From Planctomycetaceae bacterium (GTDB taxonomy: Bacteria; Planctomycetota; Phycisphaerae; Tepidisphaerales; Tepidisphaeraceae): DNA of 62,412 nt. The stretch is from contig JBIQLO010000001.1 of the NCBI GenBank assembly GCA_044464175.1, positions 1 to 62,412 of the forward strand, written 5' to 3'. Shown here piece by piece: positions 6,358 to 37,670 of the stretch; position 1 is the stretch's first letter, and the number at the start of each line of letters is the position of its first letter. Below the pieces are notes generated by a model. It worked only from the letters and a program-made list of their open reading frames with translations. It did not search any database and was not told the DNA's origin. A program made the translations under genes and the position numbers.

Positions 6358-8576
6358 ACCACAAACCCACCATTGCCTTCTTCGGCTCCAGCCTTGTCTC
6401 GGCCTACTGGAACGGGGCGGCCACTTACTACCGGGGCCTGGTTCGCGCGCTGCACGCCCGCGGCTATCGCGTCACGTTCTATGAGCCTGATGCCTACGAA
6501 CGGCAACAGCATCGGGACATGCCCGACCCGCCCTGGGCGCGGGTGGTGGTCTATTCAGCCCAGGGCACCGATGCGCTTGAGGCGTGCCTTCAGGAAGCCG
6601 CCGGTGCCGATCTGATCGTCAAGGCCAGTGGCGTGGGGGTTTTTGACGAGCTGCTTGAAGCGCGGGTTCCGGCCCTGCGGCGATCGGGCAATTTGGTGGC
6701 CTTCTGGGATGTGGATGCCCCGGCCACGCTGGAACGGCTTCGGCGGAACCCGCAGGACCCGTTTCATCCCCTGATTCCGCGGTATGACCTGATTTTCACA
6801 TATGGCGGCGGGCAGCCGGTGATCTCGGCGTACGAACAACTGGGGGCGCGGCGATGCGTGCCGATTTACAACGCCCTGGACCCGCAAACGCATCATCCGG
6901 TCCCGCCCGAGCCGCGCTTTGAGGCGGACCTGGGATTTCTGGGCAACCGCCTGCCGGACCGGGAGGCGCGGGTGGAGGCGTTCTTCATTCAGGCCGCGGC
7001 GATGCTGCCCCAGCGGCAGTTTCTGCTGGGGGGAAGCGGATGGGAGGACAAGCCGCTGCCGCCCAACATCCGCCGCCTGGGGCACGTGCCGACGGCCGAC
7101 CACAACGCCTTTAACTGCACGCCCAGGGCGGTGCTGAACATCAGCCGCCAAAGCATGGCCGATTTTGGCTTCTCGCCGGCCACGCGCGTCTTTGAGGCCG
7201 CCGGCGCGGCCGCCTGCCTCATTACCGATGATTTTCCGGGCATTGACGAATTCTTTGAACCGGAGACGGAGATTCTCGTGGCGCGGGATGGGGCGGATGT
7301 CGCACGGCAGCTTGAGGCGCTGACGCCTGCAAAAGCGACCGCCATCGGGCAGGCCGCGTGCCGGCGGGTTCTGGCTGATCATACCTATGCCCAGCGGGCG
7401 GTGCGATTTGAGGAGGCAATCGGGGCCGATCCCGGAAGTGGGATTTCGGGTGCCGGGATTCGGGATTCTCACTCCAATCCGAATCCCGGCACCCAAAACC
7501 CGAAATCCGAGTCCCTCAACATCGTCATTCTCGGCCTGTCCATCACCTCTTCATGGGGAAACGGACACGCTACGACCTATCGGGGCCTGGTGCGCGAGCT
7601 GAGCCGCCGGGGACATCAGGTTTTGTTTCTTGAGCGGGATAAGCCCTGGTATGCGAACAACCGCGATCTACCCCACCCCCCTTTTGGGCGCACGGCATTG
7701 TATAAGACGGTGGAGGACCTGAAGCGGCGATTTGCGGCCGAGGTCCGGCAGGCGGACCTGGTGATCGTCGGCTCGTATGTGCCCCAGGGCGTGGCCGTTG
7801 GGCAATGGGTGATCCAGACCGCGCGGGGGCTGCCGGCATTTTATGACATCGACACGCCGGTCACGCTGGCGAAGCTGGAGCGGGGCGATGAGGAATACCT
7901 GTCGCGGGCCCTGGTGCCGCGCTACCGGCTGTACCTCTCCTTCACCGGCGGGCCGACGCTGGAGCGGCTGGAAAGGGAATTCGGGTCCCCCGCCGCCCGG
8001 GCGCTCTATTGCGCGGTGGACCCGGAATCGTATTACCCGCAGGAGTCGGCCAAAATCTGGGAACTGGGGTACCTGGGCACCTACAGCCCCGACAGGCAGC
8101 CCGCGCTGGAGCAGTTTTTGATGGGAACGGCGCGCCGGCGTCCCGCCGGGCGGTTTGTGGTGGCGGGCTCGCAGTATCCCTCGGAGATCGACTGGCCGCC
8201 CAACGTACAGCGCATCGAGCATCTGAACCCATCGGAACACCGGGCCTTCTACAACCAGCAGGATTTGACGCTCAACCTGACTCGCTCGGACATGCGTCGG
8301 GCCGGCTACTGCCCCAGCGTGCGCCTGTTTGAGGCGGCCGCCTGCGGGGTGCCGATCCTGACTGACCGGTGGGAGGGGCTGGATGAGTTCTTCACACCCA
8401 ATGAGGAAATCTGCGTCATCGGCAACACGGAGGAGGCGTTGCGGCTGATGGAGCAGCGCCAATCCAAGGCGATGCGCCTGCTGGGACAGGCCGCGCGGCA
8501 TCGGGTGCTGTCGCGGCACACGGCGGCCCATCGGGCGGCCGAATTGGAAACCATCGTACATGAGCTGAATCAATGA
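6354..8576 (+). CDS. Tandem di-domain CgeB-family glycosyltransferase-like protein (modules 2 and 3 fused)
   Basis: Residues 1 to ~360 and ~385 to 740 are paralogous: FFGSSLVSAYWNGAATYYRGL versus ILGLSITSSWGNGHATTYRGL, and RVFEAAGAAACLITD versus RLFEAAACGVPILTD. ATGA overlaps at both ends (6354 and 8573). Confidence 0.7.
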   Translation: MNHKPTIAFFGSSLVSAYWNGAATYYRGLVRALHARGYRVTFYEPDAYERQQHRDMPDPPWARVVVYSAQGTDALEACLQEAAGADLIVKASGVGVFDELLEARVPALRRSGNLVAFWDVDAPATLERLRRNPQDPFHPLIPRYDLIFTYGGGQPVISAYEQLGARRCVPIYNALDPQTHHPVPPEPRFEADLGFLGNRLPDREARVEAFFIQAAAMLPQRQFLLGGSGWEDKPLPPNIRRLGHVPTADHNAFNCTPRAVLNISRQSMADFGFSPATRVFEAAGAAACLITDDFPGIDEFFEPETEILVARDGADVARQLEALTPAKATAIGQAACRRVLADHTYAQRAVRFEEAIGADPGSGISGAGIRDSHSNPNPGTQNPKSESLNIVILGLSITSSWGNGHATTYRGLVRELSRRGHQVLFLERDKPWYANNRDLPHPPFGRTALYKTVEDLKRRFAAEVRQADLVIVGSYVPQGVAVGQWVIQTARGLPAFYDIDTPVTLAKLERGDEEYLSRALVPRYRLYLSFTGGPTLERLEREFGSPAARALYCAVDPESYYPQESAKIWELGYLGTYSPDRQPALEQFLMGTARRRPAGRFVVAGSQYPSEIDWPPNVQRIEHLNPSEHRAFYNQQDLTLNLTRSDMRRAGYCPSVRLFEAAACGVPILTDRWEGLDEFFTPNEEICVIGNTEEALRLMEQRQSKAMRLLGQAARHRVLSRHTAAHRAAELETIVHELNQ
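7441..7508. repeat. CGGGATT-heptamer hairpin lying inside the CDS at the junction of the two CgeB modules
   Basis: Arms are GGATTTCGGGTGCCGGGATTCGGGATT and AATCCGAATCCCGGCACCCAAAACCCGAAATCC. They pair as 10 bp plus 13 bp blocks with one bulge. The element is translated as GISGAGIRDSHSNPNPGTQNPKS. Confidence 0.85.
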
Positions 8577-9361
8577 CCTCCACGGACACACAGGATCGGC
8601 AAGGGACGGCCGAGCAGGTCGAGGCCCTCAAGCCCTGGTTTCACAATCTCCACTTGCCGGACGGCACGCAGACGGTGCCCGATCACTGGCTGGGGGATTT
8701 TCCCACGTTCAAGTGGCGACAAATCGGCCACCACCTGCCGGAGGACCTGCGTGGATGGCGGTGCCTGGACATCGGCTGCAACGCGGGGTTTTATTCGTTT
8801 GAGCTGGCGAAGCGCGGCGCTGAGGTGCTGGGGATCGATGTTGATGAGCACTACCTGAAGCAGGCGCGCTGGGCGGCAAGACAGTATGGACTTGAGGATC
8901 GGATACGCTTTTGCCGCATGCAGGTGTATGACCTGGCGCGGCTGGGCGAGACGTTCGACCTGGTCTGGTTCATGGGCGTGCTCTATCACCTGCGCTATCC
9001 GATGCTCGGCCTGACCCTGGTCTGCCGGAAAGTGGGCCGGCTGATGGTCTTCCAGACCCTCACGATGCCGGGGAGCGAGGTATTTGAGGCGACCGACAAC
9101 CGACTCTGGGAGGAGCGGGAGCTGATGGGGGAGCCGGGCTGGCCGAAAATGGCCTTTCTCGAACACGGATTCGCCGGCGATCCCACAAACTGGTGGGCGC
9201 CCAACCACGCCGCGGTCGAGGCGATGCTCCGCAGCTGCGGGATGGAAGTGACCCACCGTCCGGGACATGAAATCTACCTCTGCCGGCCGACGGGCACGAT
9301 CGAGGAGGATCCGGAACTGGATTCGATCCTGCACCTGTCGTCGCCGGCGGATCCCGAATGA
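8573..9361 (+). CDS. Class I SAM-dependent methyltransferase
   Basis: SAM motif I CLDIGCNAGFYSFELAKRGA..VLGIDVD. From memory, the N-terminal WFHNLHLPDG region resembles the methyltransferase family named after Rta_06860 and DUF1698-type enzymes. Confidence 0.75.
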   Translation: MTSTDTQDRQGTAEQVEALKPWFHNLHLPDGTQTVPDHWLGDFPTFKWRQIGHHLPEDLRGWRCLDIGCNAGFYSFELAKRGAEVLGIDVDEHYLKQARWAARQYGLEDRIRFCRMQVYDLARLGETFDLVWFMGVLYHLRYPMLGLTLVCRKVGRLMVFQTLTMPGSEVFEATDNRLWEERELMGEPGWPKMAFLEHGFAGDPTNWWAPNHAAVEAMLRSCGMEVTHRPGHEIYLCRPTGTIEEDPELDSILHLSSPADPE

Positions 9362-9384
9362 GACTGTCGCATCCAATCCGGCCA

Positions 9385-9413
9385 TTGACACTCCCCCACC
9401 GGTGGTCTAGCTT
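9385..9413 (+). promoter_or_regulatory. Candidate sigma-70 promoter TTGACA-N17-TAGCTT for psd
   Basis: TTGACA at 9385-9390 and TAGCTT at 9408-9413. The psd ATG at 9423 is only 9 nt past the -10, implying a nearly leaderless mRNA. Confidence 0.3.
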
Positions 9414-9422
9414 TCGGCGCAT

Positions 9423-10157
9423 ATGATTCGTCTGACGCGGCATGGATTTCGGGAGATGCTCATCGGGTCGCTGGTGCTGATTGCGGTGGGCGTGGTGGTG
9501 GGTTATGCGCTCTGGTGGCCGCTGTCGCTGCTGGTGATTCCGGTGCTGGTGTGGCTGTTCGCGTTCTTCCGCGATCCCGAGCGGCTGGTGCCGGCGGTGC
9601 AGCACGCGATGGTCAGTCCGGCCGACGGCGTGGTCTCGGACATCACGGACATTCCGCATGACGAGCTGTTGGGCGGCCCGGCGGTGCGGGTGGGGATTTT
9701 CCTGTCCGTCTTCAACGTCCATATCAACCGCAGCCCATGCGACGGGCGGGTGATCGCCACCAACTACAAGCCGGGGAAGTTCATCAATGCGATGAAGCAC
9801 GACCAGGCGTCCAGCGAGAATGAGTCGAACACGGTGGTGCTGGCCGAACCGCACGGCGAGCGTCCCATCGCGGTGGTGAAGCAGATTGTCGGGCTGATTG
9901 CCCGGCGGATCGTCTGCACGGTAAGCAACGGCGATATCGTGGAGCGGGGGCAGCGGATCGGCATGATCAAATTCGGCAGCCGGACGGAACTGAGCATTCC
10001 GAAGTGGATGGGGCCAAAAATTCAGGTGAAGATCGGGCAGCCGGTGCGCGGGGCGGCGGACATCATCGCCCTGCTGGAGCAGGGTGTGCACACGGAGACG
10101 CCGGCCGCCGGGACGGATGAATTTGAGCCGATCGTAGGACGGGAAAGCCCGGCGTGA
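9423..10157 (+). CDS. psd: Phosphatidylserine decarboxylase (short form)
   Basis: FNVHINRSPCDGRV core and an FGSRTE self-cleavage (G-S) region. N-terminal membrane helices. Confidence 0.9.
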   Translation: MIRLTRHGFREMLIGSLVLIAVGVVVGYALWWPLSLLVIPVLVWLFAFFRDPERLVPAVQHAMVSPADGVVSDITDIPHDELLGGPAVRVGIFLSVFNVHINRSPCDGRVIATNYKPGKFINAMKHDQASSENESNTVVLAEPHGERPIAVVKQIVGLIARRIVCTVSNGDIVERGQRIGMIKFGSRTELSIPKWMGPKIQVKIGQPVRGAADIIALLEQGVHTETPAAGTDEFEPIVGRESPA

Positions 10158-10165
10158 ACATGGAC

Positions 10166-10194
10166 AATGGAAAATGGAAAATGAAAAATGGAAA
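10166..10194. repeat. Left arm of a perfect 29-bp inverted repeat (GGAAAAT heptamers)
   Basis: AATGGAAAATGGAAAATGAAAAATGGAAA is the exact reverse complement of 10583-10611. Confidence 0.95.
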
Positions 10195-10560
10195 TCAGGC
10201 GCGGCGGCGAGCGGTGACAATGGCTCGTCCGAGCATGCGGGCGATTTCCGAGGTTTCCCGGCGGACATCGGCGATGCGGGGTTCCTGAACCAACCTGGTT
10301 TCCACAATCAGCCGCAACCAATAAAGGGTTTCTCTCGCTTCCTTCAATGCGATGAGGTATTTGGCGACGAAATCAGCTTTGCTCTGAGCGGCCTGCCCTT
10401 CCTCGATATTTGCGCCGATGGAAGTTCCGGCGCGCAGCAACTGACTGGCGAGGGTGCGCGGCGTTCCAGGCTGGCGGTCCAAAAAGCGACAAAGATGAAC
10501 AATCCGGACCGCCAATCCGAAAGACCGGTCGGGAATGCTGGAAGATGTGGGAGTAATCAT
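10195..10560 (-). CDS. Four-helix-bundle protein (23S rRNA intervening-sequence protein family)
   Basis: 122 aa counted from the ATG at 10560. The motif LLRAGTSIGANIEEGQAAQSKADFVAKYLIALKEARETLYWLRL is characteristic of this family. The longer ORF-track start runs into the repeat arm. Confidence 0.85.
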   Translation of the reverse strand: MITPTSSSIPDRSFGLAVRIVHLCRFLDRQPGTPRTLASQLLRAGTSIGANIEEGQAAQSKADFVAKYLIALKEARETLYWLRLIVETRLVQEPRIADVRRETSEIARMLGRAIVTARRRA

Positions 10561-10582
10561 TCCTTCATCATGGCCCTTCCAT

Positions 10583-10611
10583 TTTCCATTTTTCATTTTC
10601 CATTTTCCATT
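10583..10611. repeat. Right arm of the perfect 29-bp inverted repeat
   Basis: TTTCCATTTTTCATTTTCCATTTTCCATT. Ends 4 nt before the pssA ATG. Confidence 0.95.
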
Positions 10612-10615
10612 TGAC

Positions 10616-11518
10616 ATGCCTCCCCTTCCCTCCAACTCCGTCCATCATCTGCATCGCCGCCAGCGGCGGCGGTGGCGCCGGCGGCGGGCGTATATCCGCT
10701 CGGTCTACTTTCTGCCCAGCCTGGCGACCCTGGGCAATGCGATCTGCGGGTTCGCGGCCATTTATGTGGCAGCATTGGATCCGTCGCTGCCCAGCGCCGA
10801 CTGGCTGACGGCGCGCTTCGCCGAGCACCGATTCACGGTGGCGGCCTATCTGATCTTCTTCGCCATGGTCTTTGACGCCCTGGACGGGCGGCTGGCGCGG
10901 TTTGCCCGGCATACGACCGATTTCGGCGGGCAGCTGGACAGCTTGGCGGATGTGCTGAGCTTTGGGGCGGCGCCGGCGTTTCTGGCGCTGCAGGCGTTTA
11001 AGGCGGGGTACCCGGATGTGCCGACGATCCTGTCGCGGCTGATCTGGGCGGTCGGGGCGCTGTTCATGAGCTGTGCGGCCATGCGCCTGGCGCGGTTCAA
11101 TGTCAGCAATGAGCATGGGGAACAGCACCACTTCAGCTTCCTGGGGCTGCCCAGCCCCGGGGCGGGGGCGGCCGTGGCATCGCTGGTGCTACTGGAACAA
11201 TATCTGCAGAACCACGGCCTGGCGTGGCTGTCGGCAATGTGCCTGTGGCTGCTGCCGCCGGTGGTGCTGGGAGCGGGGCTGCTGATGGTCAGCGCGGTGC
11301 GGTATCCGCACATGGTGAACCGGTATCTTCGGGGCAAGCGCTCAATCGCGCGGCTGGTGGCCGTGCTGGTGATCGCGCTGCTGTTCGTGGTGGCGCATCA
11401 GGTGACGCTGGCGATCGGCGCGCTGGGGTATGCGGCGTACGGGCCTGCATTGTGGCTGCTGGCGCGATGGCGCAAGAGCGGGGCGGGCGAGATGCCACAC
11501 ACCCAGCCGAATTCCTAG
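10616..11518 (+). CDS. pssA: CDP-diacylglycerol--serine O-phosphatidyltransferase
   Basis: CDP-alcohol phosphatidyltransferase motif DGRLAR...G...DSLAD. Multiple TM helices. ATG at 10616; the upstream ORF-track extension is repeat-encoded. Confidence 0.9.
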   Translation: MPPLPSNSVHHLHRRQRRRWRRRRAYIRSVYFLPSLATLGNAICGFAAIYVAALDPSLPSADWLTARFAEHRFTVAAYLIFFAMVFDALDGRLARFARHTTDFGGQLDSLADVLSFGAAPAFLALQAFKAGYPDVPTILSRLIWAVGALFMSCAAMRLARFNVSNEHGEQHHFSFLGLPSPGAGAAVASLVLLEQYLQNHGLAWLSAMCLWLLPPVVLGAGLLMVSAVRYPHMVNRYLRGKRSIARLVAVLVIALLFVVAHQVTLAIGALGYAAYGPALWLLARWRKSGAGEMPHTQPNS

Positions 11519-11698: not shown

Positions 11699-11723
11699 AG
11701 GTTCCGGCCCGTTCAGGCACGGC

Positions 11724-13829: not shown

Positions 13830-14211
13830 AGAAGTTCCTTTGCCAACCCCGGCTGTGGCGGGGTAAAACACCGGCCGCCCATGCGGCCGGACAGTATCCA
13901 TACGTCATTTCTGGTCGCAGGTTTGCTCGAAAGCGAGCGGCCGGCGGTGAGGGGGAGTACTGTAGCGATCTGGGGAGGTTCGTCAAGGGTTGGGATTCGG
14001 GATTTGGGGGAAATGGGTTCGTTTGAGAGGCGGGCCCGGAGGTGGAGTCAGGAGTCGGGAGGCACATGGCGGAGTGGAAGGCCGCTTGCATTCGGGGGGG
14101 GATTGGACTATCGTTTGGCCCATTGGTTCGGCCGCGTGGGCGGCCGGTTTTGTTAGGGACCGACCCTTGGCCGGAGGACGGCTGGGAGTTTGGTGGCTGG
14201 AGTAGTGGATT

Positions 14212-14481: not shown

Positions 14482-14485
14482 CGGC

Positions 14486-14515: not shown

Positions 14516-14594
14516 CATGGCCGGCCCGCGGCGCGCCTCTTTCGGCCTCGTGGCGGACGCCTCAGAAGAAAGCCGGCCTCGGCCCATTACCAAA

Positions 14595-14675
14595 GTTGCC
14601 AGTTTCCAGTTCGTAGGGTGGGCTTTAGCCCACCACCGCTGACTGGTGGTAAAGCCCACCCTACGAACTGGCAAC
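14595..14675. repeat. Long composite hairpin in the rpsO-pnp leader (CCAGTT outer arms plus GTAGGGTGGGCTTTA core)
   Basis: AGTTCGTAGGGTGGGCTTTA pairs perfectly (20 bp) with TAAAGCCCACCCTACGAACT. An inner CCACCA/TGGTGG stem and outer GTTGCCAG/CTGGCAAC also pair. Confidence 0.9.
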
Positions 14676-14730
14676 TGACAACTCCCTGTCGGGCCGATTC
14701 CCCCCTTGAGGCTGCTGAAGGATATTGTCT

Positions 14731-25661: not shown

Positions 25662-25690
25662 GTTACCAGTTATCAGTTGCCAGTTGCCAG
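25662..25690. repeat. CCAGTTG tandem heptamers spanning the nuoN/nuoM junction
   Basis: GTTACCAGTTATCAGTTGCCAGTTGCCAG. Covers the 18-nt spacer and the last nuoM codons (..LATGN stop). Confidence 0.8.
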
Positions 25691-27319
25691 AGTGATCGCG
25701 GTCGAAGGATGCACCTCCAAGGCCGCCACCCGAATCCCGGAACCCGAATCCCGGCTGTCGACCACCGACTGCTGAATCGGGCGCAGGATATCCTGCACCG
25801 GCTTGAGGATCGGCGAGAGGACGCCGTTGGGCAGCACGCCCAGCAGCACTACCGCCAACGCCAGCGGCACCAGAATCGCCACTTCGCGCCCGTTCAGGTC
25901 GGGTTTGGGCCCGGCGTGGTGGGCATGGCCCGGCTCGCCGTGATCGGCGGTCGGGTGCTTCAGCGGGCCGAAGATCACCCGGGCGACCATGTGCAGCATG
26001 TAGAGCGCGCCCAGGATCACGCCCAGCGCCCCCAGCACGCCAAAGCCGATGCCCAGGTGGGGCGAGGTGAACGCCCCCAGGAGCGTCAGAAATTCGCTGA
26101 CAAACCCGTTCAATCCCGGCAGGCCGATGCTGGAGAGGGCAAACAGTACGAAGAAGAAGGCCAGCTTGGGCATGACCCGCGCCAGGCCGGAAAGCTCATG
26201 GATGTCGCGGGTGTGGTAGCGCTCGTAGATCATCCCGATCACAAGGAACATCGCCCCGGTGCTCAGGCCGTGGTTGATCATGTAGAGGACCGATCCCTGC
26301 TGTCCGATTTCGTTCAGGGCGAACAGCCCCAGCACGCAAAAGCCCAGGTGGGAAACCGAGGAGTAGGCGACCAGCTTCTTGATGTCCTGTTGCACCCACG
26401 CCACCAGGGCAGCGTAGATGATCCCGATGACGCACACGATGCCGATCCACTTGACCAGCAGCGGGAAGGAGACGCCCGTGGCGGTGATCAGGCCGATGGG
26501 AATCGCCAGGCGGAACAGCCCGTAGGTCCCCAGCTTCAGCAACACGCCGGCCAGGATCACGCTGCCGGCGGTCGGGGCCTCGGTGTGCGCCAGTGGCAGC
26601 CAGGTATGGACCGGGAACAGCGGCACCTTCACGGCGAAACCGGACAGGAAGCCGAGAATCACCCACCAGCGCTCGCTGTGGGTGAGGGCAGGGATGCCGG
26701 GGAGGCCGTGCTGCGCCCCGGCCACGATGGTGGCGATGTCGAAGGTGTTGTACTTCAGGCCCAGGTAGATCGCCGTGGCCAGCGTCAGCATGGAGCCGGT
26801 AAAGGTGAAAATGAAGAACTTGATCGCCGCGTAATTCCGCTCCGGACCGCCCCAGACGCCGATCAGGAAGAACATCGGGATCAGGGTCAGCTCGAAGAAG
26901 ATGTAGAACATCAGCAGGTCGGCGGCCACGAAAACGCCGAGCATGGTGAACGCCATGCCCAGCATCCAGGCGTAATACTCCTGCTGGCGCTGCTGGATGT
27001 AGCTGAAGCTGCCGGCCACGGAGATCGGCATCAGCACGACCGTGAGCATCATCAGCCACATGCTCACCGCGTCGGCCGACAGATGGAAGCTGAATCCGAT
27101 GCCCGGCACCTGCAGCGAGGAGAGGCTCCAGTCAAGGGTCGCCCCGGGCGTGAGCCAGGGGAACTGAAGCACCATCGCCAGCCCGACCAGCGCCGTCAGC
27201 AGACTGACAAACAGGGACCAGGTCTGGGCGGCCCTGGTCTGGCGGATGAACGCCGCCACGATCGTCCCCACCAGAGGGACGGCCAGAAGAAGCGGAAGCC
27301 AGATGCTGTGTACGATCAT
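25673..27319 (-). CDS. nuoM: NADH-quinone oxidoreductase subunit M, with a repeat-encoded C-terminal tail
   Basis: Antiporter-like subunit. The final ~30 aa (VVDSRDSGSGIRVAALEVHPSTAITLATGN) are encoded by heptamer repeats. Confidence 0.9.
   Translation of the reverse strand: MIVHSIWLPLLLAVPLVGTIVAAFIRQTRAAQTWSLFVSLLTALVGLAMVLQFPWLTPGATLDWSLSSLQVPGIGFSFHLSADAVSMWLMMLTVVLMPISVAGSFSYIQQRQQEYYAWMLGMAFTMLGVFVAADLLMFYIFFELTLIPMFFLIGVWGGPERNYAAIKFFIFTFTGSMLTLATAIYLGLKYNTFDIATIVAGAQHGLPGIPALTHSERWWVILGFLSGFAVKVPLFPVHTWLPLAHTEAPTAGSVILAGVLLKLGTYGLFRLAIPIGLITATGVSFPLLVKWIGIVCVIGIIYAALVAWVQQDIKKLVAYSSVSHLGFCVLGLFALNEIGQQGSVLYMINHGLSTGAMFLVIGMIYERYHTRDIHELSGLARVMPKLAFFFVLFALSSIGLPGLNGFVSEFLTLLGAFTSPHLGIGFGVLGALGVILGALYMLHMVARVIFGPLKHPTADHGEPGHAHHAGPKPDLNGREVAILVPLALAVVLLGVLPNGVLSPILKPVQDILRPIQQSVVDSRDSGSGIRVAALEVHPSTAITLATGN
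25729..25754. repeat. CCCGAAT/CCCGGAA tandem heptamers inside the nuoM 3' end
   Basis: CCCGAATCCCGGAACCCGAATCCCGG. Same unit (complement of CGGGATT) as 7441-7508 and 40818-40836. Confidence 0.8.
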
Positions 27320-27321
27320 GT

Positions 27322-27405
27322 TATTTGTTATGTGTTATTGGCAATTCGTTATTGGCCATTTGCGAAGGACAAACCAACCAGTAACAAACAACCAGCAACA
27401 AAAAT
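27322..27405. repeat. AT-richer imperfect hairpin with ~7-nt periodic arms in the nuoM/nuoL spacer
   Basis: The left arm GTTATTGGCAATTCGTTATTGG opposes the right arm CCAACCAGTAACAAACAACCAGCAAC. Fills the 92-nt spacer. Confidence 0.55.
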
Positions 27406-27411
27406 CAGTTC

Positions 27412-29622: not shown

Positions 29623-29625
29623 GCG

Positions 29626-29700
29626 TCGTTGTCCGTTGTCCGTTGTCCGCTGCCCGGTGTCCGATTTGCTTCCTCGGACCACGGTCCACAGACAACGATC
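29626..29700. repeat. CGTTGTC/GTCCGTG-family hairpin in the nuoL/nuoK spacer
   Basis: Three tandem CGTTGTC units at 29627-29647 are opposed by TCGGACCACGGTCCACAGACAACGA. The outer 8 bp TCGTTGTC/GACAACGA pair perfectly. Confidence 0.8.
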
Positions 29701-29701
29701 C

Positions 29702-30019: not shown

Positions 30020-30027
30020 TCGTCCAT

Positions 30028-30098
30028 CGTGGTTCGTGGTCCGTGGTCCGTGGTCCGAAAGAGTGAATCGGACCACGGACAACGGACGACGGACCACG
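30028..30098. repeat. GTCCGTG-heptamer hairpin in the nuoK/nuoJ spacer
   Basis: CGTGGTTCGTGGTCCGTGGTCCGTGGTCCGA, then a 9-nt loop, then TCGGACCACGGACAACGGACGACGGACCACG. The arms are 31 nt with about 4 mismatches. Confidence 0.9.
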
Positions 30099-30101
30099 TC
30101 C

Positions 30102-31188: not shown

Positions 31189-31587
31189 TCAATCCTCCGC
31201 TGGGACGCCCTGATCCGATGGGGCCGCCGGAAGCCGGAACCTCAGGCCCAGGTACTCCACATGCACCGCCTGAATGTCGGCCAAGTCCACGTGTTCGACT
31301 CTGGCGCTAAAAAACCGCTTGTAGGATATTTGGCTCAAATACGCCGCTGATACCCCCGGAACGTCGCGTAATTCAGGCTCTGTCCCAAGTTCCAGCCTGA
31401 TGCGGGCCATTTTGAGGTTTTTTGGGGGAATGAATCGGGATCCGAGGGAAAAATCCGATGGCGCTGTGGCTTGAAAGCGGATCATCTCGAGGTCCACGAT
31501 CACCTCACTGGCCTTCTTCTGCATGATGGACCCCGTGCCCCTCCACCCGTTGACCTCCACGGACACCAATTCTCGAGTCGGGGTCAT
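31189..31587 (-). CDS. Hypothetical protein
   Basis: ORF in an apparently lower-G+C islet. Start is uncertain (ATG at 31587 or 31662). No recognizable motif. Confidence 0.35.
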   Translation of the reverse strand: MTPTRELVSVEVNGWRGTGSIMQKKASEVIVDLEMIRFQATAPSDFSLGSRFIPPKNLKMARIRLELGTEPELRDVPGVSAAYLSQISYKRFFSARVEHVDLADIQAVHVEYLGLRFRLPAAPSDQGVPAED

Positions 31588-31651
31588 GGTCGCTCCATCT
31601 TTGCAGGTGATCGGTGGGCCAATCCTCCCCACCCTACCGACTGGGCAGAAT

Positions 31652-32098
31652 TTACGTGTCATAGTCACCGCTGTCCCACGGCTCAAAAAACGCCATGTAA
31701 TTGCCAGGCTGCATTTCCACGGCCCATACGTCCTCTTCATCCTCCGGCTCACGAACAACTAAGCCAAACTCTATGCCGAAATATTTCACGGAGAACGGAG
31801 CAACTTCCACACGCTCGTAGCTGATGTCACCAAGCTCCGCCAGCCATCGATCACGCAGGTGGACCGCGCCCTCCTCGTCTAATGTCGCTCGCGGGCCCAG
31901 GTTCTCGATCTTCGCCTCAAGTAATTGACCTTCGCTGTCAAACAGATAGAGGGCCAGGAACTCCGCACCAGGTCCATCTATTGCCAAGTCGAAGGGAGTG
32001 GTGAGGATGAATTGGCGGCCATCCTTAATGCGCCCAATATATTGCGCCGCGTCATCGTCATGCTCAATCGCGATCCGACTGGGGGGATTCTCACTCAT
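31652..32098 (-). CDS. Hypothetical acidic cytoplasmic protein
   Basis: 148-aa ORF with balanced, non-repetitive composition, ending ...FFEPWDSGDYDT. No family recognized. Confidence 0.5.
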   Translation of the reverse strand: MSENPPSRIAIEHDDDAAQYIGRIKDGRQFILTTPFDLAIDGPGAEFLALYLFDSEGQLLEAKIENLGPRATLDEEGAVHLRDRWLAELGDISYERVEVAPFSVKYFGIEFGLVVREPEDEEDVWAVEMQPGNYMAFFEPWDSGDYDT

Positions 32099-32146
32099 GA
32101 TATCTCTTTCCTTTTTTCAGTTTCGCAAGGCGCGCAATAGCGTGTC

Positions 32147-32944
32147 CTACGTCACCCGCCACACCCACGGGGCGTGCTGCATCAGATACGTCTCATACCG
32201 CTGGGCCAAGCTGGGGTTGATCGCCGGATCGGATGCAAATTGCGCCGCCAGCCGGCAGTACGTCCATCGCATGTATATGGCATAGGTGCTTTGCGGAAAC
32301 CGCTTCACATACGATTCGATCCCCCGCAATGACTCGGCCAGGTTCTTCGACGACTTCAATTCCGGCAGCAGGTCCATCAGCGGATCGACCCGCGCGGTGT
32401 GACTGACCGAGCTCAGCGCCGCCATCGCCGCCCGCTCGGCCGGATCGTCCACGCAGGCGATGGTCACCGTATTGGAATAGACCACCCCGCTCTGCTGCAG
32501 TTTCAGACGCACTTCGTACCGCTGGCTGGCCTGAAACAGCGGCTGCTGCTGCCGGTTAAAGGTGAACAGTTTGAGAACCATTCCCAGCGAAGACTGGGGC
32601 GGCAACTGGACATACCCCAGCAGCGGCAGAATCGTCCACCAAGTGGGGATATCGCGCCATGCGCCGCCCTTTGCCGGCCGATATTGAACCGTCGCACCGA
32701 CCTCCCGGATACTTACCTGCCCGGCCGTGTTGGGATTCTTCACGGTTGTCGCGAGGAATAATGGCTCAAACGGCAGCAATTGCTTGCGCACCGGTTGAAG
32801 GGTGACCGCCAGCGGCGCCACCGGCCCGGCCGGGCGCCCGTCGCACGCCACGCACAGGCTGCACGCCAGAAGCGTCAGGAGCAGAAAACGGCCGATCTGG
32901 GACCATTCTGATTTCATTCCACGGGTGAATGGCTCCCATCCCAT
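32147..32944 (-). CDS. Hypothetical lipoprotein
   Basis: Candidate lipobox LLTLLAC after a charged N-terminus. Start is ATG 32944 or 32917; the longer track start is unlikely. Confidence 0.5.
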   Translation of the reverse strand: MGWEPFTRGMKSEWSQIGRFLLLTLLACSLCVACDGRPAGPVAPLAVTLQPVRKQLLPFEPLFLATTVKNPNTAGQVSIREVGATVQYRPAKGGAWRDIPTWWTILPLLGYVQLPPQSSLGMVLKLFTFNRQQQPLFQASQRYEVRLKLQQSGVVYSNTVTIACVDDPAERAAMAALSSVSHTARVDPLMDLLPELKSSKNLAESLRGIESYVKRFPQSTYAIYMRWTYCRLAAQFASDPAINPSLAQRYETYLMQHAPWVWRVT

Positions 32945-33091
32945 CGCGGCTCCTCCAGATATGTCCAGAACGGCGGGACCGGAGCGCGAGTTTACCGGGA
33001 TGACTCGGATGGGACAATCAAAAAATGATGCGTACCTGCTGTTCTGTAGACCACAGCGCGACAACGGATGCATGGCCGGCCAAGGCCCCTG

Positions 33092-33775
33092 CTACCCCAT
33101 CATCTCCCCCACCACCCGGTCCAGCTGGCTGTTCAGGTCCGCATCGATTTCCCCGTGGTGGGTGGCCAGGCGGCAGCCGCCGGGGGCGATCGATTCATCG
33201 GCCACCAGCTCGACGTGCTTCAGATTCGGCCATTGGAGCTTCAGATGCGGCAGCTCGCGCTCCAGAATCGCCTTCTGCTCCGGATGCACGGCAATCCGCA
33301 CATCCGAGGCGTGGATCACCAGCGCCATCGCCTCGGTGAGATTGGCGATCAGCACCTGCGGGTCCACCGCCGCCTGACGCTTGAGGATGCGCCGGGCCAG
33401 GGCGATGGCCAGTTCCGCCACCTCGGCCACGGCCGATGCCTCCAACTCCCGCCGCGAGGCGTCGATTTCCGCGGCCGTCGCCGACAGCGTCTGGATCAAC
33501 CCCGCCAGTTCCTGGCGGCACTCGCCCAAAGCGGCGTCGTGCCCGCTGCGCTGGCCCTGAGCCAAGCCGGCGGCCATCCCCTCCTGATGCCCCTGCGTCC
33601 GTCCTTCCTCCACCGCCTCGGCCCGCATCTGCTCCGCCTGGGCCTGCGCCTCGGCCAGCAACTGCTCCGCCTGCGACCGGGCGCGCAGCAAAATCCGCCG
33701 CGCCGCCGCCTCGATGTCGGCAAACGAAAACGGCGTCGCGGCCGCCGGGGCGAGGTTGGATTTGATCAGGCCCAT
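33092..33775 (-). CDS. fliH: Flagellar assembly protein FliH
   Basis: Coiled-coil AEQLLAEAQAQAEQMRAEA region and a C-terminal GGCRLATHHGEIDADLNSQL motif. Positioned after fliG. Confidence 0.8.
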   Translation of the reverse strand: MGLIKSNLAPAAATPFSFADIEAAARRILLRARSQAEQLLAEAQAQAEQMRAEAVEEGRTQGHQEGMAAGLAQGQRSGHDAALGECRQELAGLIQTLSATAAEIDASRRELEASAVAEVAELAIALARRILKRQAAVDPQVLIANLTEAMALVIHASDVRIAVHPEQKAILERELPHLKLQWPNLKHVELVADESIAPGGCRLATHHGEIDADLNSQLDRVVGEMMG

Positions 33776-33799
33776 GATGGAATGGATGCGGATCGACCG

Positions 33800-33865
33800 A
33801 AACGTGAAACATGAAGCGGTTGGGCTGTTTTTTTCATGTCTTCCTGTTTCACGTCTTCACGTCCG
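33800..33865. repeat. Hairpin with GT(T/C)TCAC heptamers in the fliG/fliH spacer
   Basis: CGTGAAACA pairs with TGTTTCACG, and CATGAA pairs with TTCATG, giving alternative registers. Tandem GTTTCAC GTCTTCA units are present. Confidence 0.55.
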
Positions 33866-33866
33866 C

Positions 33867-34883
33867 CTAAACGACCATCTCCTTCTCTCCGCCGCGCCCG
33901 GCAATGATGATTTCGCCGGCATCCTCCAGGCGGCGGACAATGTCCACGATCTTCTGCTGGGCCGCCTCCACATCGCTGACGCGCACGGGGCCCATGTACT
34001 GCATGTCCTCGCCGATCAGCTGGGCGGCGCGTTCGGACATATTCTTGAAAATCTTGTCCTTCAGCTCCTGGCTGGCCGTCTTGAGGGCCAGCGCCAGTTC
34101 CTCGTTGTCCACTTCCTTCAGCACCGACTGAATCCCCTTGTCGTTGACCAGCAGGATGTCCTCGAAGACGAACATGAGCCGGCGAATCTGCTCCACCAGG
34201 TCCGGGTCCTCCGCCTCCAGCCCCTCCATGATCCCCTTCTCCGTCGAGCGGTCGGCCAGGTTGAGAATCTCGGCCACCGTGTCCACGCCCCCGGCCTTCT
34301 CGAAGGTCTGGCTCACGATGTCGCTCAAACGATGCTCCAGCCCGCGCTCCACCTCCTTGATGACCTCCGGGTTGGTCTGCTCCATGTTGGCCACGCGCTT
34401 GACTACCTCCACCTGCTTGGCGCTGGGCAGGCCGACGAGGATTTCCGAGGCCTTCTGGCTGGGCAGGTGCGCCAAAATCAGCGCGATCGTCTGCGGATGC
34501 TCATCCTGAATGAACGTCAGCAGGTTCTCGCTCTCGGCCTTCTGCAAAAACGAGAACGGCGTGGTCTGCACCTGCTGGGTCACCTGCTTGATGACCCGTT
34601 CGGCATCCTGCTCGCTCAGCGACTTTTTTAAGAGGCTCTTGGCGTGCTCCAGCCCCCCCTCGCTCAGGTAGGAGTTGGCCAGGGCCAGGTTGTAAAACTC
34701 CCCAAAGACCTCCTTGCGCGTCGCCAGGGAGATCTCCCCCAGCGAGGCGATCTCGCGCGACACCTCCTCCACCGCCTCGGCCGGAAGGCGCTTGAGCACC
34801 TCCGCCGCCTGGTCCTGCTCCAGCGACAGAAGCAGAATCGCCGCCTTGCGAACGCCCGACATATCCAGTGTGCTCTTGGCCAT
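33867..34883 (-). CDS. fliG: Flagellar motor switch protein FliG
   Basis: 338 aa. VRKAAILLLSLEQDQAAEVLKRL N-terminus and typical C-terminal torque-helix region. Confidence 0.9.
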   Translation of the reverse strand: MAKSTLDMSGVRKAAILLLSLEQDQAAEVLKRLPAEAVEEVSREIASLGEISLATRKEVFGEFYNLALANSYLSEGGLEHAKSLLKKSLSEQDAERVIKQVTQQVQTTPFSFLQKAESENLLTFIQDEHPQTIALILAHLPSQKASEILVGLPSAKQVEVVKRVANMEQTNPEVIKEVERGLEHRLSDIVSQTFEKAGGVDTVAEILNLADRSTEKGIMEGLEAEDPDLVEQIRRLMFVFEDILLVNDKGIQSVLKEVDNEELALALKTASQELKDKIFKNMSERAAQLIGEDMQYMGPVRVSDVEAAQQKIVDIVRRLEDAGEIIIAGRGGEKEMVV

Positions 34884-34914
34884 GAATTAGTTGCCGGTTG
34901 TCGGCATGTAGCAT

Positions 34915-34968
34915 GTAGGGTGGGCTTTAGCCCACCAGGAACGGCCGGTGGGCTAAAGCCCACCCTAC
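34915..34968. repeat. Perfect 22-bp hairpin GTAGGGTGGGCTTTAGCCCACC in the fliF/fliG spacer
   Basis: Arms at 34915-34936 and 34947-34968 are exact reverse complements. Same core as 14611-14668. Confidence 0.95.
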
Positions 34969-34984
34969 GACCGCCTACTCGGCC

Positions 34985-36631
34985 TCACCGATGCAGCCAC
35001 CGCTGCACCAGGTTGGCCGCCGCGTCCGGATTGTCCTTCACCATCGTCTCCACTTGGGTCAGCATCTGCTGCGCCCGCACGGCATCCTCATCCAGTTCCA
35101 TTCCGTCCAGCATTCCCTCCCCGCCGCCAACCTCGGCCGCCAGTTCCTCCCCGCCGATCAGCGGCGGGGGCTCCTTCGGCTCGCTGGTCCGGATCGCGGC
35201 CACCACCGGCTGCGGCCCGCTCTTGCGCACCATCATCATCACCATCAGCAGGCTGAAGACCGCCAGCACCCCCACCGCGATCTCCTTCAGGTGCGATGAA
35301 AAAGCCATCGTCAGCGGCGCGGAGGCGGCCGACGCCACGGCCGCCGGCATGCGCGGGGCCAGGTCCGGATAGGTCTCCACCGTCACGGCGTTGGGGTCCT
35401 TCAGCGCGGTGCATCCCATCACCACCTGGCGGATGTTGGACAGTTCCGCATCGATGATCGGCTTGAGCACCGCCTCATCCGGGTCGTTCTGCGCGTTGGG
35501 ATTGCGGCTCTTGAACAGCTTGATGAAGAAGCTGCGCGGCACGCGCACGGCCGCCGCCACCGGCGTGGCCGTCCCGGCCGGCATCTTGCTGGTGGTGACG
35601 GTCTTGCTTACCTCCACCATGTACTTGGTCTGGTTCTTCTCGCTGGTGGTGCTGGAGGTGTCCCCCGCCGGCGCCGAGCCGTCGATGGACATGCCCGTGT
35701 TGGTGGCGACCCCCGGCTCCCCGCCGGCCGGGGAGGTGGAATGGGATTCATCCGTGCTGTTGGTCTCCTCGATCGGCTTGGAGACCACCTTCTTGGGGTC
35801 CACCTCCGTCGCCTGCTGCTGGCGGGAGACCGTGTCCAGGTCCACCGTCACGCTGACCAGCGCGCCGGGGATGAACGAAAGCATCCCCTGGATTTTGTCC
35901 ACATACCGCCGCTCGTTGGCCTGCACCAGTTGGAGGATGTCGTCGGGAATGAATCCATCCTCATCCTTGGCGGCCACCGGGTAGGACACCCCGTCCACGA
36001 TGACGGCCACGCGATTGCGCGGCATCCCCGCCTGCGAGCCGGTCACCACGTCGGCGGCCGCGTAGACGAGCTTTTTGTTCGGCTTCTGCCCGTCGCGCAT
36101 GGTGATGTAGACCGTCGCCGAGGGGAGCACGTTGCCCCCGATGACGCGCTGCTGGGTGGGGTCGATCACCACCTGGGCCGACTGGACGTTGGGAAAGCGC
36201 GAGATGATCTGGCTGAGGGTGATCTCCTTGGCCCGGTTGAACCGCTCCTTTTCCATGGTGGGCGATTCCCAGAGGCTCATCTGCTTGATCATCTCATCAA
36301 AGCCGCTGGTGGTGTCACGCGGGAGCATGCGCTGGTAGCCCAGGTCCGCCAGCACCTCCATTTTCCGGTCGGTGGGCACCAGCACCCGGTCCCCCGAAAC
36401 CTTGTATTCAATGCCGCGCGAGGCGATGGCGGCGGTGACGCGCGCGATGTCATCGGCCGCGAACGGCTGGTCCAGCAAGGGGGTCAGTTCCGGATTGCCC
36501 GCGTATTTCCCCCAGTAGAGCAGCGTCATGATCATGATCGCCACCAGCGCGCCGGTGAGCATCTTCTGCGTGGCGCTCAGCTGGGCCAGTTGCTGCTGGA
36601 TACGATCAAACTGCGATTTGAGAAAGTCCAT
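34985..36631 (-). CDS. fliF: Flagellar M-ring protein FliF
   Basis: 548 aa. An N-terminal TM helix, YscJ/FliF ring-building domains and a C-terminal TM helix plus a FliG-binding tail. Confidence 0.9.
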   Translation of the reverse strand: MDFLKSQFDRIQQQLAQLSATQKMLTGALVAIMIMTLLYWGKYAGNPELTPLLDQPFAADDIARVTAAIASRGIEYKVSGDRVLVPTDRKMEVLADLGYQRMLPRDTTSGFDEMIKQMSLWESPTMEKERFNRAKEITLSQIISRFPNVQSAQVVIDPTQQRVIGGNVLPSATVYITMRDGQKPNKKLVYAAADVVTGSQAGMPRNRVAVIVDGVSYPVAAKDEDGFIPDDILQLVQANERRYVDKIQGMLSFIPGALVSVTVDLDTVSRQQQATEVDPKKVVSKPIEETNSTDESHSTSPAGGEPGVATNTGMSIDGSAPAGDTSSTTSEKNQTKYMVEVSKTVTTSKMPAGTATPVAAAVRVPRSFFIKLFKSRNPNAQNDPDEAVLKPIIDAELSNIRQVVMGCTALKDPNAVTVETYPDLAPRMPAAVASAASAPLTMAFSSHLKEIAVGVLAVFSLLMVMMMVRKSGPQPVVAAIRTSEPKEPPPLIGGEELAAEVGGGEGMLDGMELDEDAVRAQQMLTQVETMVKDNPDAAANLVQRWLHR

Positions 36632-36740
36632 GGCTCAAAGCCTTCCTTGGCTTGACCACAATCGTTCAGGCGCGAAGACGGCTCCTCCTGAGCCATCACA
36701 AAATCAGAGTAAATCACGAATCGGGAAAATGCAAATGGAA

Positions 36741-36808
36741 ATCGTTGTCCGTGGTCCGTTGTCCGAGCAGAAACCACGGACCACGGACAACGGACAACGG
36801 ACAACGAT
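36741..36808. repeat. CGTTGTC/GTCCGTG-family hairpin in the fliE/fliF spacer
   Basis: ATCGTTGTCCGTGGTCCGTTGTCCG is opposed by CGGACCACGGACAACGGACAACGGACAACGAT. The register can slip by whole heptamers. Confidence 0.85.
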
Positions 36809-37113
36809 CAAATCGGCATATTCTTAATCTCCTCGTACGCATCCATCAGCTTGGAGCGGATCGCCAGGAGGGTCTTGAAGGCCAGGTCCGACTTCTCCAC
36901 CGCCGTCATCACCCCGGTCACGTTCTCCGTCTTGCCCGCCACCAGGTCCTCCACGGCCGCCGAGGCATCCTGCTGCATCTTCGACACCTCGTCGATGCTC
37001 TTTTTCAGCGCATCGGCAAAGCTCGCCCCCCCGCCGCCGGCCGCCCCCCCCGCCGCCGGCATCGACCCGCCGATCTTCCCGATCCCGAGATTGTTGGTGG
37101 AAATTGGATTCAT
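36808..37113 (-). CDS. fliE: Flagellar hook-basal body complex protein FliE
   Basis: 101 aa from the ATG at 37113. The FADALKKSIDEVSKMQQDA...AVEKSDLAFKTLLAIRSKLMDAYEEI sequence is typical of FliE. Confidence 0.85.
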   Translation of the reverse strand: MNPISTNNLGIGKIGGSMPAAGGAAGGGGASFADALKKSIDEVSKMQQDASAAVEDLVAGKTENVTGVMTAVEKSDLAFKTLLAIRSKLMDAYEEIKNMPI

Positions 37114-37115
37114 GT

Positions 37116-37190
37116 TCGTTGTCCGGGGTCCATCGGCCGTGGTCCATGATGATCCCTCTGGGACCATGGACAACGGATCACGGACCACGA
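37116..37190. repeat. Degenerate GTCCGTG-family hairpin in the flgC/fliE spacer
   Basis: TCGTTGTCCGGGGTCCATCGGCCGTGGTCC versus GGACCATGGACAACGGATCACGGACCACGA. About 22 of 30 positions are complementary. Confidence 0.65.
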
Positions 37191-37192
37191 TT

Positions 37193-37588
37193 TCATGCGA
37201 TCAACCTCAGCGCCGAGTTCAGCATCGCCTTGCTCGTCTCCATCATCGTCACATTCGCCTCATACGCCCGGGACGCCTCCATGGCGTTGACATATTCGGT
37301 CGGCAGATTGATGTTGGGATAGCGCACATATCCGTTCTTGTCCGCATCCGGATTCCCCGGCTCATACCGTTTCTGGAAAGGCGAATGGTCGATCTTCACC
37401 TCGGCCCGCACGCCCGCCTTGCCGTTGGCCTGCCCCGCCGCAAAAACCGTGAACCGGCGCCGATAGGGGATTTTTTCCCCTTTGGCGTTCCGCGTCGTGT
37501 TCAGGTTCATGATATTGGCCGCGATCGTGTCCATCCGCGCCCGCTGGGCCTCCAGCCCGCTGGCGCCCATATCCAGTATGTCAAACAT
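37193..37588 (-). CDS. flgC: Flagellar basal-body rod protein FlgC
   Basis: MFDILDMGASGLEAQRARMDTIAANIMNLNTTR and a C-terminal SNVTMMETSKAMLNSALRL-type rod motif. ATG at 37588. Confidence 0.9.
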   Translation of the reverse strand: MFDILDMGASGLEAQRARMDTIAANIMNLNTTRNAKGEKIPYRRRFTVFAAGQANGKAGVRAEVKIDHSPFQKRYEPGNPDADKNGYVRYPNINLPTEYVNAMEASRAYEANVTMMETSKAMLNSALRLIA

Positions 37589-37608
37589 CAGACCTCCATG
37601 TCTTTCAT

Positions 37609-37670
37609 CGTAGTCCGTGGTCCGTGGTCCGATTCCCCTTCGGATCACGGACCACGGACTACGGACCACG
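37609..37670. repeat. GTCCGTG-heptamer hairpin in the flgB/flgC spacer
   Basis: CGTAGTCCGTGGTCCGTG pairs perfectly (18 bp) with CACGGACCACGGACTACG. There is also an inner TCCGA/TCGGA stem. Confidence 0.9.

Follow-up and report, generated by a model that had tools for sequence, protein, structure and literature searches.

The spacers of the nuo and flagellar operons in a 62,412-nucleotide stretch of DNA from Planctomycetaceae bacterium (contig JBIQLO010000001.1, positions 1 to 62,412 of the forward strand, which make up the whole contig; hereafter the window) are occupied by hairpins whose arms are tandem heptanucleotides, which raises the question of what these hairpins are and how they came to lie between co-transcribed genes. 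A preliminary description of the window had offered two answers, namely targeted insertion next to stop codons or selection for RNA processing in operons that need unequal subunit stoichiometry. With moderate confidence, we favor the hypothesis that each hairpin is a copy of a small palindromic insertion element, one of a class whose complete form carries a gene of the PF05635 family between inverted heptamer arrays. The presence of such a gene between two of the arrays, overlooked in that description, is the best clue to the nature of the elements. Our argument draws on the anatomy of the elements, the statistics of the arrays, a link between arrays and PF05635 genes that extends across phyla, and insertion polymorphism at orthologous sites.

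Heptamer Arrays and a Gene-Bearing Element in the Window

Tandem Repeats Finder and direct viewing of the sequence recovered tandem heptamers at every coordinate given in the preliminary description. A period scan found 18 period-7 runs where dinucleotide-preserving shuffles predict 1.85; periods 4, 5, 8, 10, and 11 were at background, and periods 6, 9, and 12 were modestly raised, as expected from the codon periodicity of coding sequence. When tandem 7-mers with a reverse-complement partner within 100 nt were counted, as had been proposed, the window held 14 arrays, whereas 100 shuffles of it gave 0.22 on average and never more than 2. On a gene map built with Pfam, NCBIfam, and open reading frame (ORF) calls, 14 of the 18 runs lie in the non-coding 8.3% of the window (binomial P = 1.6e-12). 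The earlier label of the repeats as intergenic does not hold for 7441-7508, which lies in frame within a glycosyltransferase ORF. The units stand head to tail, belong to at least five families, and are concentrated in operon spacers, in agreement with the earlier comparison to cyanobacterial repeats, and a hairpin was indeed found in nearly every spacer within nuoJKLMN and flgB-fliH. Nine short hairpins, with stems of 23-37 bp and no ORF, fold more stably than shuffled sequence (z from -3.1 to -10).

Five of the short hairpins, all on the minus strand, belong to one unit family. In the nuo cluster, a CGTTGTC/GTCCGTG hairpin fills the nuoK-nuoL spacer (29623..29701; -34.1 kcal/mol, z = -3.9), and a GTCCGTG hairpin with 31-nt arms that are 90% complementary fills the nuoJ-nuoK spacer (30020..30101; -52.2 kcal/mol, z = -6.6). 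Among the flagellar genes, the fliE-fliF copy (36738..36810; 25-nt arms, 96% complementary, z = -7.6) has its first base overlapped by the fliE stop codon, a degenerate copy fills the flgC-fliE spacer (37114..37192; z = -3.2), and the flgB-flgC copy (37606..37671; 24-nt arms, 96% complementary, z = -7.8) is followed by a Shine-Dalgarno sequence, GGAGG, and then by the ATG of flgC. The five copies, distributed over two operons, have the common termini (A)TCGTKGTCC...GGACMACGA(T); their arms and termini are alike and their loops are unrelated.

The preliminary description ascribed one architecture to at least eleven elements, with arms usually opposed by complementary units after a short loop. 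The arms at 25662-25690 and 25729-25754 are unpaired, and the GGAAAAT pair is not a short hairpin: its 36-nt arms (92% complementary) stand 388 nt apart and enclose a gene. The left arm (10159..10194), of about five GGAAAAT-type units, begins 1 nt past the psd stop codon and abuts the stop codon of the enclosed gene, and the right arm (10577..10618), of ATTTTCC-type units, includes at its outer end the ATG of a gene for a CDP-alcohol phosphatidyltransferase (pssA-like). Between them, on the minus strand and antisense to psd-pssA (10195..10560), is encoded a 121-aa four-helix-bundle (4HB) protein of the 23S rRNA intervening sequence (IVS) protein/Avd family. It matches TIGR02436 (E = 2.1e-27) and, in precomputed Pfam assignments, PF05635, "23S rRNA intervening sequence protein", and its closest solved structure is PDB 2rld (E = 2.4e-23). 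The S23p ORFs of 23S rRNA IVSs belong to this family, too. Another member is Avd, an accessory protein and reverse-transcriptase cofactor of diversity-generating retroelements (PMC10053308). Within the window, only 10159-10618 encodes a PF05635/TIGR02436 protein, and terminal inverted repeats with a stem of at least 20 bp are found in its arms as well as in the short hairpins. PADLOC returned no defence-system match for 4HB proteins.

Further observations concern this element. The sequence ACATG stands at both of its outer ends (10157-10161 and 10614-10618); in this single case, the pair could stem from a TGA-AC-ATG junction that psd and the pssA-like gene once shared, 5 bp of which would have been duplicated as the target. 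An empty site for the insertion was sought in the fusA neighbourhood of three close relatives, where gene order is not conserved and the comparison was uninformative. The close homologues of the 4HB protein are mostly found on contigs of ~0.5-2 kb, consistent with assembly breaks at flanking repeats.

PF05635 Genes, Heptamer Arrays, and the Same Junctions in Relatives

We aligned 29 homologues of the 4HB protein and fetched 80 PF05635 loci (contigs, one genome per species) from Nostocales and other cyanobacteria, Acidobacteriota, Planctomycetota, Verrucomicrobiota, Chloroflexota, Bacillota, Bacteroidota, Nitrospirota, Desulfobacterota, and others. In these loci, period-7 runs occur at 4.43/kb within 200 nt of the PF05635 gene versus 0.22/kb elsewhere, and periods 4-6 and 8-12 show no enrichment near the gene. 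Flanking period-7 runs are present in 74 of the 80 loci, including those at many Nostoc-type genes. The arrays upstream and downstream of the gene are mutually reverse-complementary, with at least 40 pairs having an exact 9-mer in common in reverse complement, and the unit varies between loci. Arms consist mostly of 3-5 units (median 27 nt), and the downstream arm begins a median of 9 nt past the stop codon. The loci also contain 17 ORF-less heptamer hairpins, some of which adjoin the gene and use the identical unit. PF05635 homologues number in the thousands, and we found no published general link between them and heptamer arrays beyond the Coxiella case discussed below, although subscription journals were thinly covered and an earlier description is possible. 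Provisionally, we regard heptamer arrays as the termini of PF05635 elements as new when put as a general statement.

The length of the arms would also suit a pentamer that takes one unit per subunit. Under this explanation, which we hold to be highly improbable, a pentameric 4HB protein or a cold-shock/S1-type protein reads the 7-nt units, competes with the hairpin, and so controls translation downstream. For TAACTGA repeats located just upstream of start codons, a model based on binding has been put forward (PMC4679880), and the arms are conserved whereas the loops are not. Against it, a single genome uses several unrelated units, octamer arrays occur as well, and the 4HB fold is not known to bind nucleic acids in a sequence-specific way, the role of Avd being that of a reverse-transcriptase cofactor (PMC10053308).

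The same junctions were compared in relatives. The host is a Tepidisphaerales planctomycete; its closest named relatives by EF-G, 79-88% identical, are Tepidisphaeraceae and Fontivita pretiosa (Phycisphaerae, Planctomycetota). Scanning metagenomes with NuoK yielded 80 syntenic loci (73-84% amino-acid identity; L numbers below refer to individual loci), in which the spacers between nuoJ, nuoK, and nuoL are bimodal in length, being either 0-6 nt long, sometimes with overlap of the genes, or filled by a palindromic stretch of 44-190 nt. Of the relatives, 26 have an empty nuoK-nuoL junction, 24 have a heptamer hairpin there, 5 a PF05635 gene, 8 another palindrome, and 10 other sequence, with no octamer hairpins and 7 loci not scorable. 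At the nuoJ-nuoK junction, 36 relatives are empty, 8 have a heptamer hairpin, 4 an octamer hairpin, 11 another palindrome, and 11 other sequence; none has a PF05635 gene and 10 are not scorable. Because a junction that is empty in some relatives is filled by a hairpin or a PF05635 gene in others, the hairpins are insertions rather than a conserved feature of operon design, and the junctions act as insertion sites that are dispensable and do not amount to conserved modules of regulation. Gains and losses of elements fall on the timescale at which genera and families diverge.

The PF05635 genes at the nuoK-nuoL junction lie on the nuo strand (L119, L120, L126, L134, and L152, by hidden Markov model (HMM) matches; those of L120, L126, and L152 were confirmed against Pfam, E 1e-34 to 1e-37). 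These divergent genes had been missed by tblastn with the first 4HB alignment and were found by ORF inspection and HMM. All five are flanked by GTTGCTA-type arms, and the same unit family forms the ORF-less nuoK-nuoL hairpins of L084, L088, L108, and L110. The hairpins and the gene-bearing element have architecture, sites and, in relatives, unit families in common. By nuoK, the five gene-bearing loci are not mutual nearest relatives, and L124 and L128, whose nuoK genes are 89% identical, carry different unit families.

Units among the relatives include GTTGCTA, GTCACTG, TACTTGA, GTTAGTG, GCGTAAT, AATGATG, AGTGGGC, and others. The window's own GTTGTCC unit or its relics occur in L089, L112, L113, and L114, and the exact GTCCGTG family (the GGACCACGGACMACGG motif) is absent from the 163 fetched loci. 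The octamer arms at the nuoJ-nuoK junction, which are found in L106, L107, L124, and L140 (GAGACGAA, GGTGACAA, GCGACGGA, and GGCACGAA), mean that the period is not strictly 7. In 42 kb of unascertained DNA from three relatives, heptamer arrays are few and mostly intergenic; an intergenic AGACAGG/AGACAGA array in one Tepidisphaerales relative (L163, 1378-1407) has nearly the unit of the Coxiella IVS, GACAGAT.

The periodic run extends over the stop codon of the upstream gene in 10 of the 34 filled junctions. The nuoK stop is in register within the first heptamer (e.g., TAGTTGT TAGTTGC) in L088, L108, L110, L120, L124, L126, L128, L147, and others, and many 5'-arm units hold stop codons in two or three frames. 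The earlier proposal of insertion next to stop codons, through either targeting or mere tolerance, fits the empty and filled junctions and this overlap.

We thus return to the hypothesis of an insertion element. Its ends would be inverted arrays of 3-5 heptamers, and the layout of its complete form would be that of protein-coding 23S rRNA IVSs. On this hypothesis, the window would contain one complete copy (10159-10618), about nine ORF-less forms, and several eroded single arms. Such elements would have inserted where co-transcribed genes are only 0-6 nt apart from stop to start, as well as in the hypervariable linker of one protein, where they are tolerated, and would be gained and lost more quickly than the genes around them diverge. 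The ORF-less hairpins appear either to derive from the gene-bearing form or to have been made by the same process, and the elements are likely to be near-neutral for the host. We speculate that mirrored arms around an arbitrary middle could arise if a 7-nt template were copied again and again, so that units were added to the 3' ends on either side of a break that was then closed; Avd homologues serve as reverse-transcriptase cofactors.

An alternative that dispenses with mobility and with any functional tie to the 4HB gene is that the arrays are microsatellites that formed in place, through polymerase slippage that favours 7-nt units and through local expansion, and were then made palindromic by hairpin-templated repair. 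Unit variants and register shifts between the two arms are indeed seen. Heptamer copy number differs among Coxiella strains (PMC4990558), and heptamers are over-represented in many bacterial genomes, for which slippage has been proposed (in work cited in PMC4692102). We give this alternative quite a small chance. Slippage leaves unexplained the two arms of L126, which mirror each other in the order of their unit variants, as well as the occurrence of one family with common termini at five sites, the 20-fold enrichment beside one gene family across phyla, and the presence of 80-100 nt at junctions that measure 0-6 nt in relatives.

Several observations nonetheless weigh against an insertion element with the PF05635 form as its complete state. 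The loops of the short hairpins showed no similarity to the interiors of 4HB elements in a test of low power, and derivation of the short hairpins by internal deletion is unproven. The five copies of one family have unrelated loops, unlike ordinary families of MITEs (miniature transposable elements with inverted repeats), and the GGAAAAT unit of the window's one 4HB gene is used by none of its ORF-less hairpins. The octamer-arm hairpins share the relatives' junctions although their period differs. No transposase or other mobility enzyme was found in association with the elements. Nor was a clear target-site duplication found: none is evident at the nuoK-nuoL junctions, and the ACATG pair occurs only once. 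Finally, the RNase III cleavage predicted at the mRNA copies is an extrapolation from one system, the Coxiella IVS.

Hairpins in Transcripts and in Proteins

Once transcribed, an element would form a stem of 23-37 bp that is not followed by a U tract. In analogy to IVSs, this stem would be cleaved by RNase III, dividing the polycistronic RNA at that point, and we consider it probable that the operon hairpins are cut in this manner. Given that such an insertion would split the RNA while leaving both flanking coding regions intact, cleavage could be why these sites, as well as rRNA helices, tolerate the elements. The reading of the hairpins as intrinsic terminators can be rejected. No U tract follows the heptamer hairpins in the window, whereas canonical terminators with a stem and U tract follow nuoN and pnp, where the nuo and pnp units end. 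With true terminators located at the unit ends, the internal hairpins are thus a different kind of signal.

The other possibility raised in the preliminary description, selection by the host, would have the hairpins kept for processing or stability of mRNA segments or for translation coupling, in the manner of enterobacterial repetitive extragenic palindromic (REP) elements. In two operons, stable stems without a U tract span the whole distance from stop to start, as this explanation would have it, and a hairpin is carried by the rpsO-pnp spacer, which in Escherichia coli is a site processed by RNase III. A precedent is also found in Haemophilus, in which an RNase III-targeted element of a 5' untranslated region interacts with a heptamer repeat tract (PMC12721329). 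Had selection preserved pairing in the mRNA, transition mismatches would be expected to persist mainly as G.U pairs on the sense strand. A set of 37 hairpins contains 73 G.U pairs on the sense strand versus 94 on the antisense strand, and the more stable strand is the sense strand in 19 and the antisense strand in 18. Neither an excess of G.U pairs nor extra stability is thus present on the mRNA strand. Furthermore, of the scorable relatives, 26 of 73 have an empty nuoK-nuoL junction and 36 of 70 an empty nuoJ-nuoK junction, unrelated palindromes stand in for one another at these sites, one copy lies within a protein linker, and other arms lie within a coding tail. The subunits of complex I are equimolar, which also counts against the idea of unequal stoichiometry. 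We judge host selection unlikely, and its stoichiometric version, in particular, finds no backing in junctions that are empty in a third to half of the relatives, interchangeable palindromes, and the lack of wobble bias.

The nuoL-nuoM spacer (27319..27405, minus strand; z = -3.1) holds an AT-richer hairpin of TGTTATT and AACAACC units. At the fliG-fliH spacer (33786..33866, minus strand; z = -3.8), reported earlier as GT(T/C)TCAC heptamers at 33800-33865, there is a periodic hairpin, but its periodicity is a mixture of 7- and 8-nt units (GAAACGT and TTCACGTC). The rpsO-pnp spacer carries a composite hairpin on the plus strand (14594..14683; -64.6 kcal/mol, z = -10), in which outer arms of AGTTGCC/GGCAACT surround a GTAGGGTGGGCTTTAGCCCACC palindrome. 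Single arms occur in the divergent region between fusA and rpsO (13992..14061), where GGGATTC x2 (13992-14005) and GGAGTCA x2.5 (14044-14061) are found, and a CCCGAAT-type single arm (40818..40836) lies upstream of a gene for a LacI-type regulator.

Two sites have been incorporated into proteins. On the minus strand, the CAACTGG-type array at 25662-25690 and the CGGGATT-type array at 25728-25754 are single arms, unrelated and not complementary (25662..25754; z = -0.6), that lie mostly within the coding sequence of the NuoM C-terminal tail. The last ~25 residues of NuoM (...DSRDSGSGIRVAALEVHPSTAITLATGN*) are encoded by the two arrays and the sequence between them (25673-25760), with a CAACTGA unit supplying the TGA at which nuoM ends. 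Heptamer arrays have thus lengthened NuoM, a conserved membrane protein. On the plus strand, a CGGGATT/AATCCCG hairpin (7433..7515; z = -4.9) lies in frame in the inter-domain linker of a conserved two-domain glycosyltransferase, encoding ~27 residues (GSGISGAGIRDSHSNPNPGTQNPKSES) of a hypervariable region that ranges from about 8 to more than 100 residues in homologues. That the hairpin caused a gene fusion was considered and rejected, for the homologues are all two-domain proteins of 709-843 aa with a hypervariable linker.

A second family of repeats, GTAGGGTGGGCTTTAGCCCACC, coexists with the heptamer arrays. It occurs as inverted pairs at 14613-14665 and 34915-34968, with three exact copies in the window versus none expected, and begins with the GTAG typical of REP elements. 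The fliF-fliG spacer (34884..34984, minus strand; z = -8.0) contains the latter pair together with GCATGTA x2 and a GACAACC/GGCAACT relic of an arm. A palindrome of this type stands in the loop of a heptamer hairpin at 14594-14683 and in L149, and analogous GTAG...CACGGGC...CTAC palindromes are found in nuo spacers of L083, L091, L093, L113, L123, L125, L137, L138, and L149.

The surroundings show some further features. The nuo cluster in the window comprises nuoJKLMN only and directly adjoins the flagellar genes; three ORFs between nuoJ and fliH (31189-33073, minus strand) match neither Pfam nor NCBIfam families. In the 539-nt region upstream of the LacI-type regulator gene lie two copies, 74 nt apart, of a 34-nt self-complementary motif (GCGCTGCGC..TTTGTCGCCAAA..GCGCAGCGC; 40468-40501 and 40576-40609), and a single octamer array, CTTCGTCG x3, is found at 40673-40697. 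The pilus operon had been described as having no spacers, which was overstated: by ORF calls, the spacers of the pilus/secretion cluster measure 25-530 nt, and no heptamer arrays were found in them.

Relation to Known Repeats and Intervening Sequences

The closest known counterparts of the gene-bearing element are the protein-coding 23S rRNA IVSs of Coxiella and Leptospira, in which an S23p ORF likewise lies between terminal inverted repeats, which pair into a long stem. The Coxiella IVS has a 28-bp terminal stem with 2-3 GACAGAT heptamers, the number of which varies by strain (PMC4990558). Recombinant RNase III of Coxiella and of E. coli cuts this stem in vitro at the first repeat, and rapid amplification of cDNA ends places the transcript ends in the stem (PMC4990558). 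By contrast, the host transcript in the window is an mRNA operon spacer or its antisense rather than rRNA helix 25/45; most copies in the window lack an ORF, and RNase III cleavage is for them a prediction only. All heptamer copies in the window lie between or within protein-coding genes and not in 23S rRNA helix 25/45, and no Rfam family, rRNA included, was found in the window at gathering scores.

Neither the hairpin arrangement nor the placement in operon spacers, both regarded as novel in the preliminary description, is new. In Xanthomonas, GGGAATC repeats occupy 186 sites, of which 89-93% are intergenic, mostly between co-directional genes, with 70-75 convergent pairs per genome able to form stem-loops (PMC4692102); GGGGAYT heptamers of Anabaena include an array in the pecE-pecF spacer of the pec operon (PMC4692102); and Geobacter metallireducens has GGACCGG arrays and paired MTYCTGA arrays (PMC2700814). 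The repeats of Xanthomonas and Anabaena resemble those described here in forming intergenic arrays and convergent pairs, and the CGGGATT family of the window is nearly their unit. They differ in having been studied as G-quadruplex formers with no gene link noted (PMC4692102), whereas the window, from a planctomycete, has several unit families that are not G-rich. What is new in this respect is the lineage of the host.

The STRR (short tandemly repeated repetitive) sequences of heterocystous cyanobacteria are likewise tandem heptanucleotides of several families and mostly intergenic, and, going by a title cited in PMC2858038, also occur inside the RNase P RNA gene. They are, however, defined as direct arrays in one group of cyanobacteria; the host here is a planctomycete, and the hairpin form and the gene association fall outside that definition. 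The TAACTGA arrays of Beggiatoaceae, cyanobacteria, and Bacteroidetes lie a few nucleotides from start codons and contain stops in all frames (PMC4679880). A near variant, the CAACTGG/TAACTGG/CAACTGA arm, supplies the nuoM stop in the window, but the TAACTGA arrays are nearly all direct, with one inverted case, and a translational-regulator site was proposed for them (PMC4679880).

Other dispersed palindromes bear a looser resemblance. REP elements and bacterial interspersed mosaic elements (BIMEs) are short palindromes in operon spacers, with a REP-associated tyrosine transposase (RAYT) gene that is flanked by inverted copies, and the Correia/NEMIS (Neisseria miniature insertion sequence) elements of Neisseria are co-transcribed and cut by RNase III. 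Dispersed palindromes in operon spacers and a gene between inverted repeat copies are features that they share with the elements described here. Unlike REP/BIME, the latter have no tyrosine transposase, their arms are periodic rather than a single palindrome, and their loops are unrelated between copies. The imperfect short palindrome of REP elements, marked by a conserved 5' GT(A/G)G, is lacking in the heptamer hairpins and present in the separate GTAGGGTGGGCTTTAGCCCACC family, a REP-like family (GTAGGGTGGGC...) that occurs alongside them; no RAYT gene was found among the annotated ORFs of the window. With MITEs, the hairpins share terminal inverted repeats but not likeness of the copies over their whole length, nor a transposase-encoding parent, the only associated gene being that of a 4HB protein without known catalytic activity. 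A CRISPR-like reading was rejected on anatomy, in that contiguous 7-mers take the place of 23-50-nt direct repeats with unique spacers and the paired arrays are inverted. We consider that the elements are best filed as IVS-type heptanucleotide-repeat palindromes, located here at planctomycete mRNA operon junctions.

An excess of heptanucleotide repeats in many bacterial genomes has had no accepted cause, although STRR sequences have been known since 1990 and later surveys again remarked on the excess. PF05635, in turn, is among the commonest "hypothetical" families of bacteria and, to our knowledge, has no known role outside diversity-generating retroelements. The 20-fold, period-specific association across phyla makes both puzzles testable, and this link between gene and array is the result most worth following up. 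PF05635 genes have been reported wedged between the genes of cas operons (PMC3936711) and have been scored as CRISPR-associated (PMC10910872). The association explains their presence inside cas and other operons, and may explain why they score as array-associated in CRISPR screens. For annotation, it follows that heptamer hairpins should not be taken for terminators and that they can extend proteins with coding tails or linkers. They probably also break metagenome assemblies, most PF05635 homologues being found on contigs of ~1 kb.

More broadly, we tentatively suggest, while regarding it as somewhat doubtful, that inverted heptamer arrays and PF05635 genes together constitute a single class of small intervening or mobile elements that spans phyla and has not been recognised before. 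If so, the 23S rRNA IVS would be only the best-known niche of this class, and the STRR sequences of cyanobacteria, the repeats of Xanthomonas, Geobacter, and Beggiatoa, and the operon hairpins of planctomycetes would be its footprints. The 4HB protein, a homologue of Avd, would then be the element's own factor.

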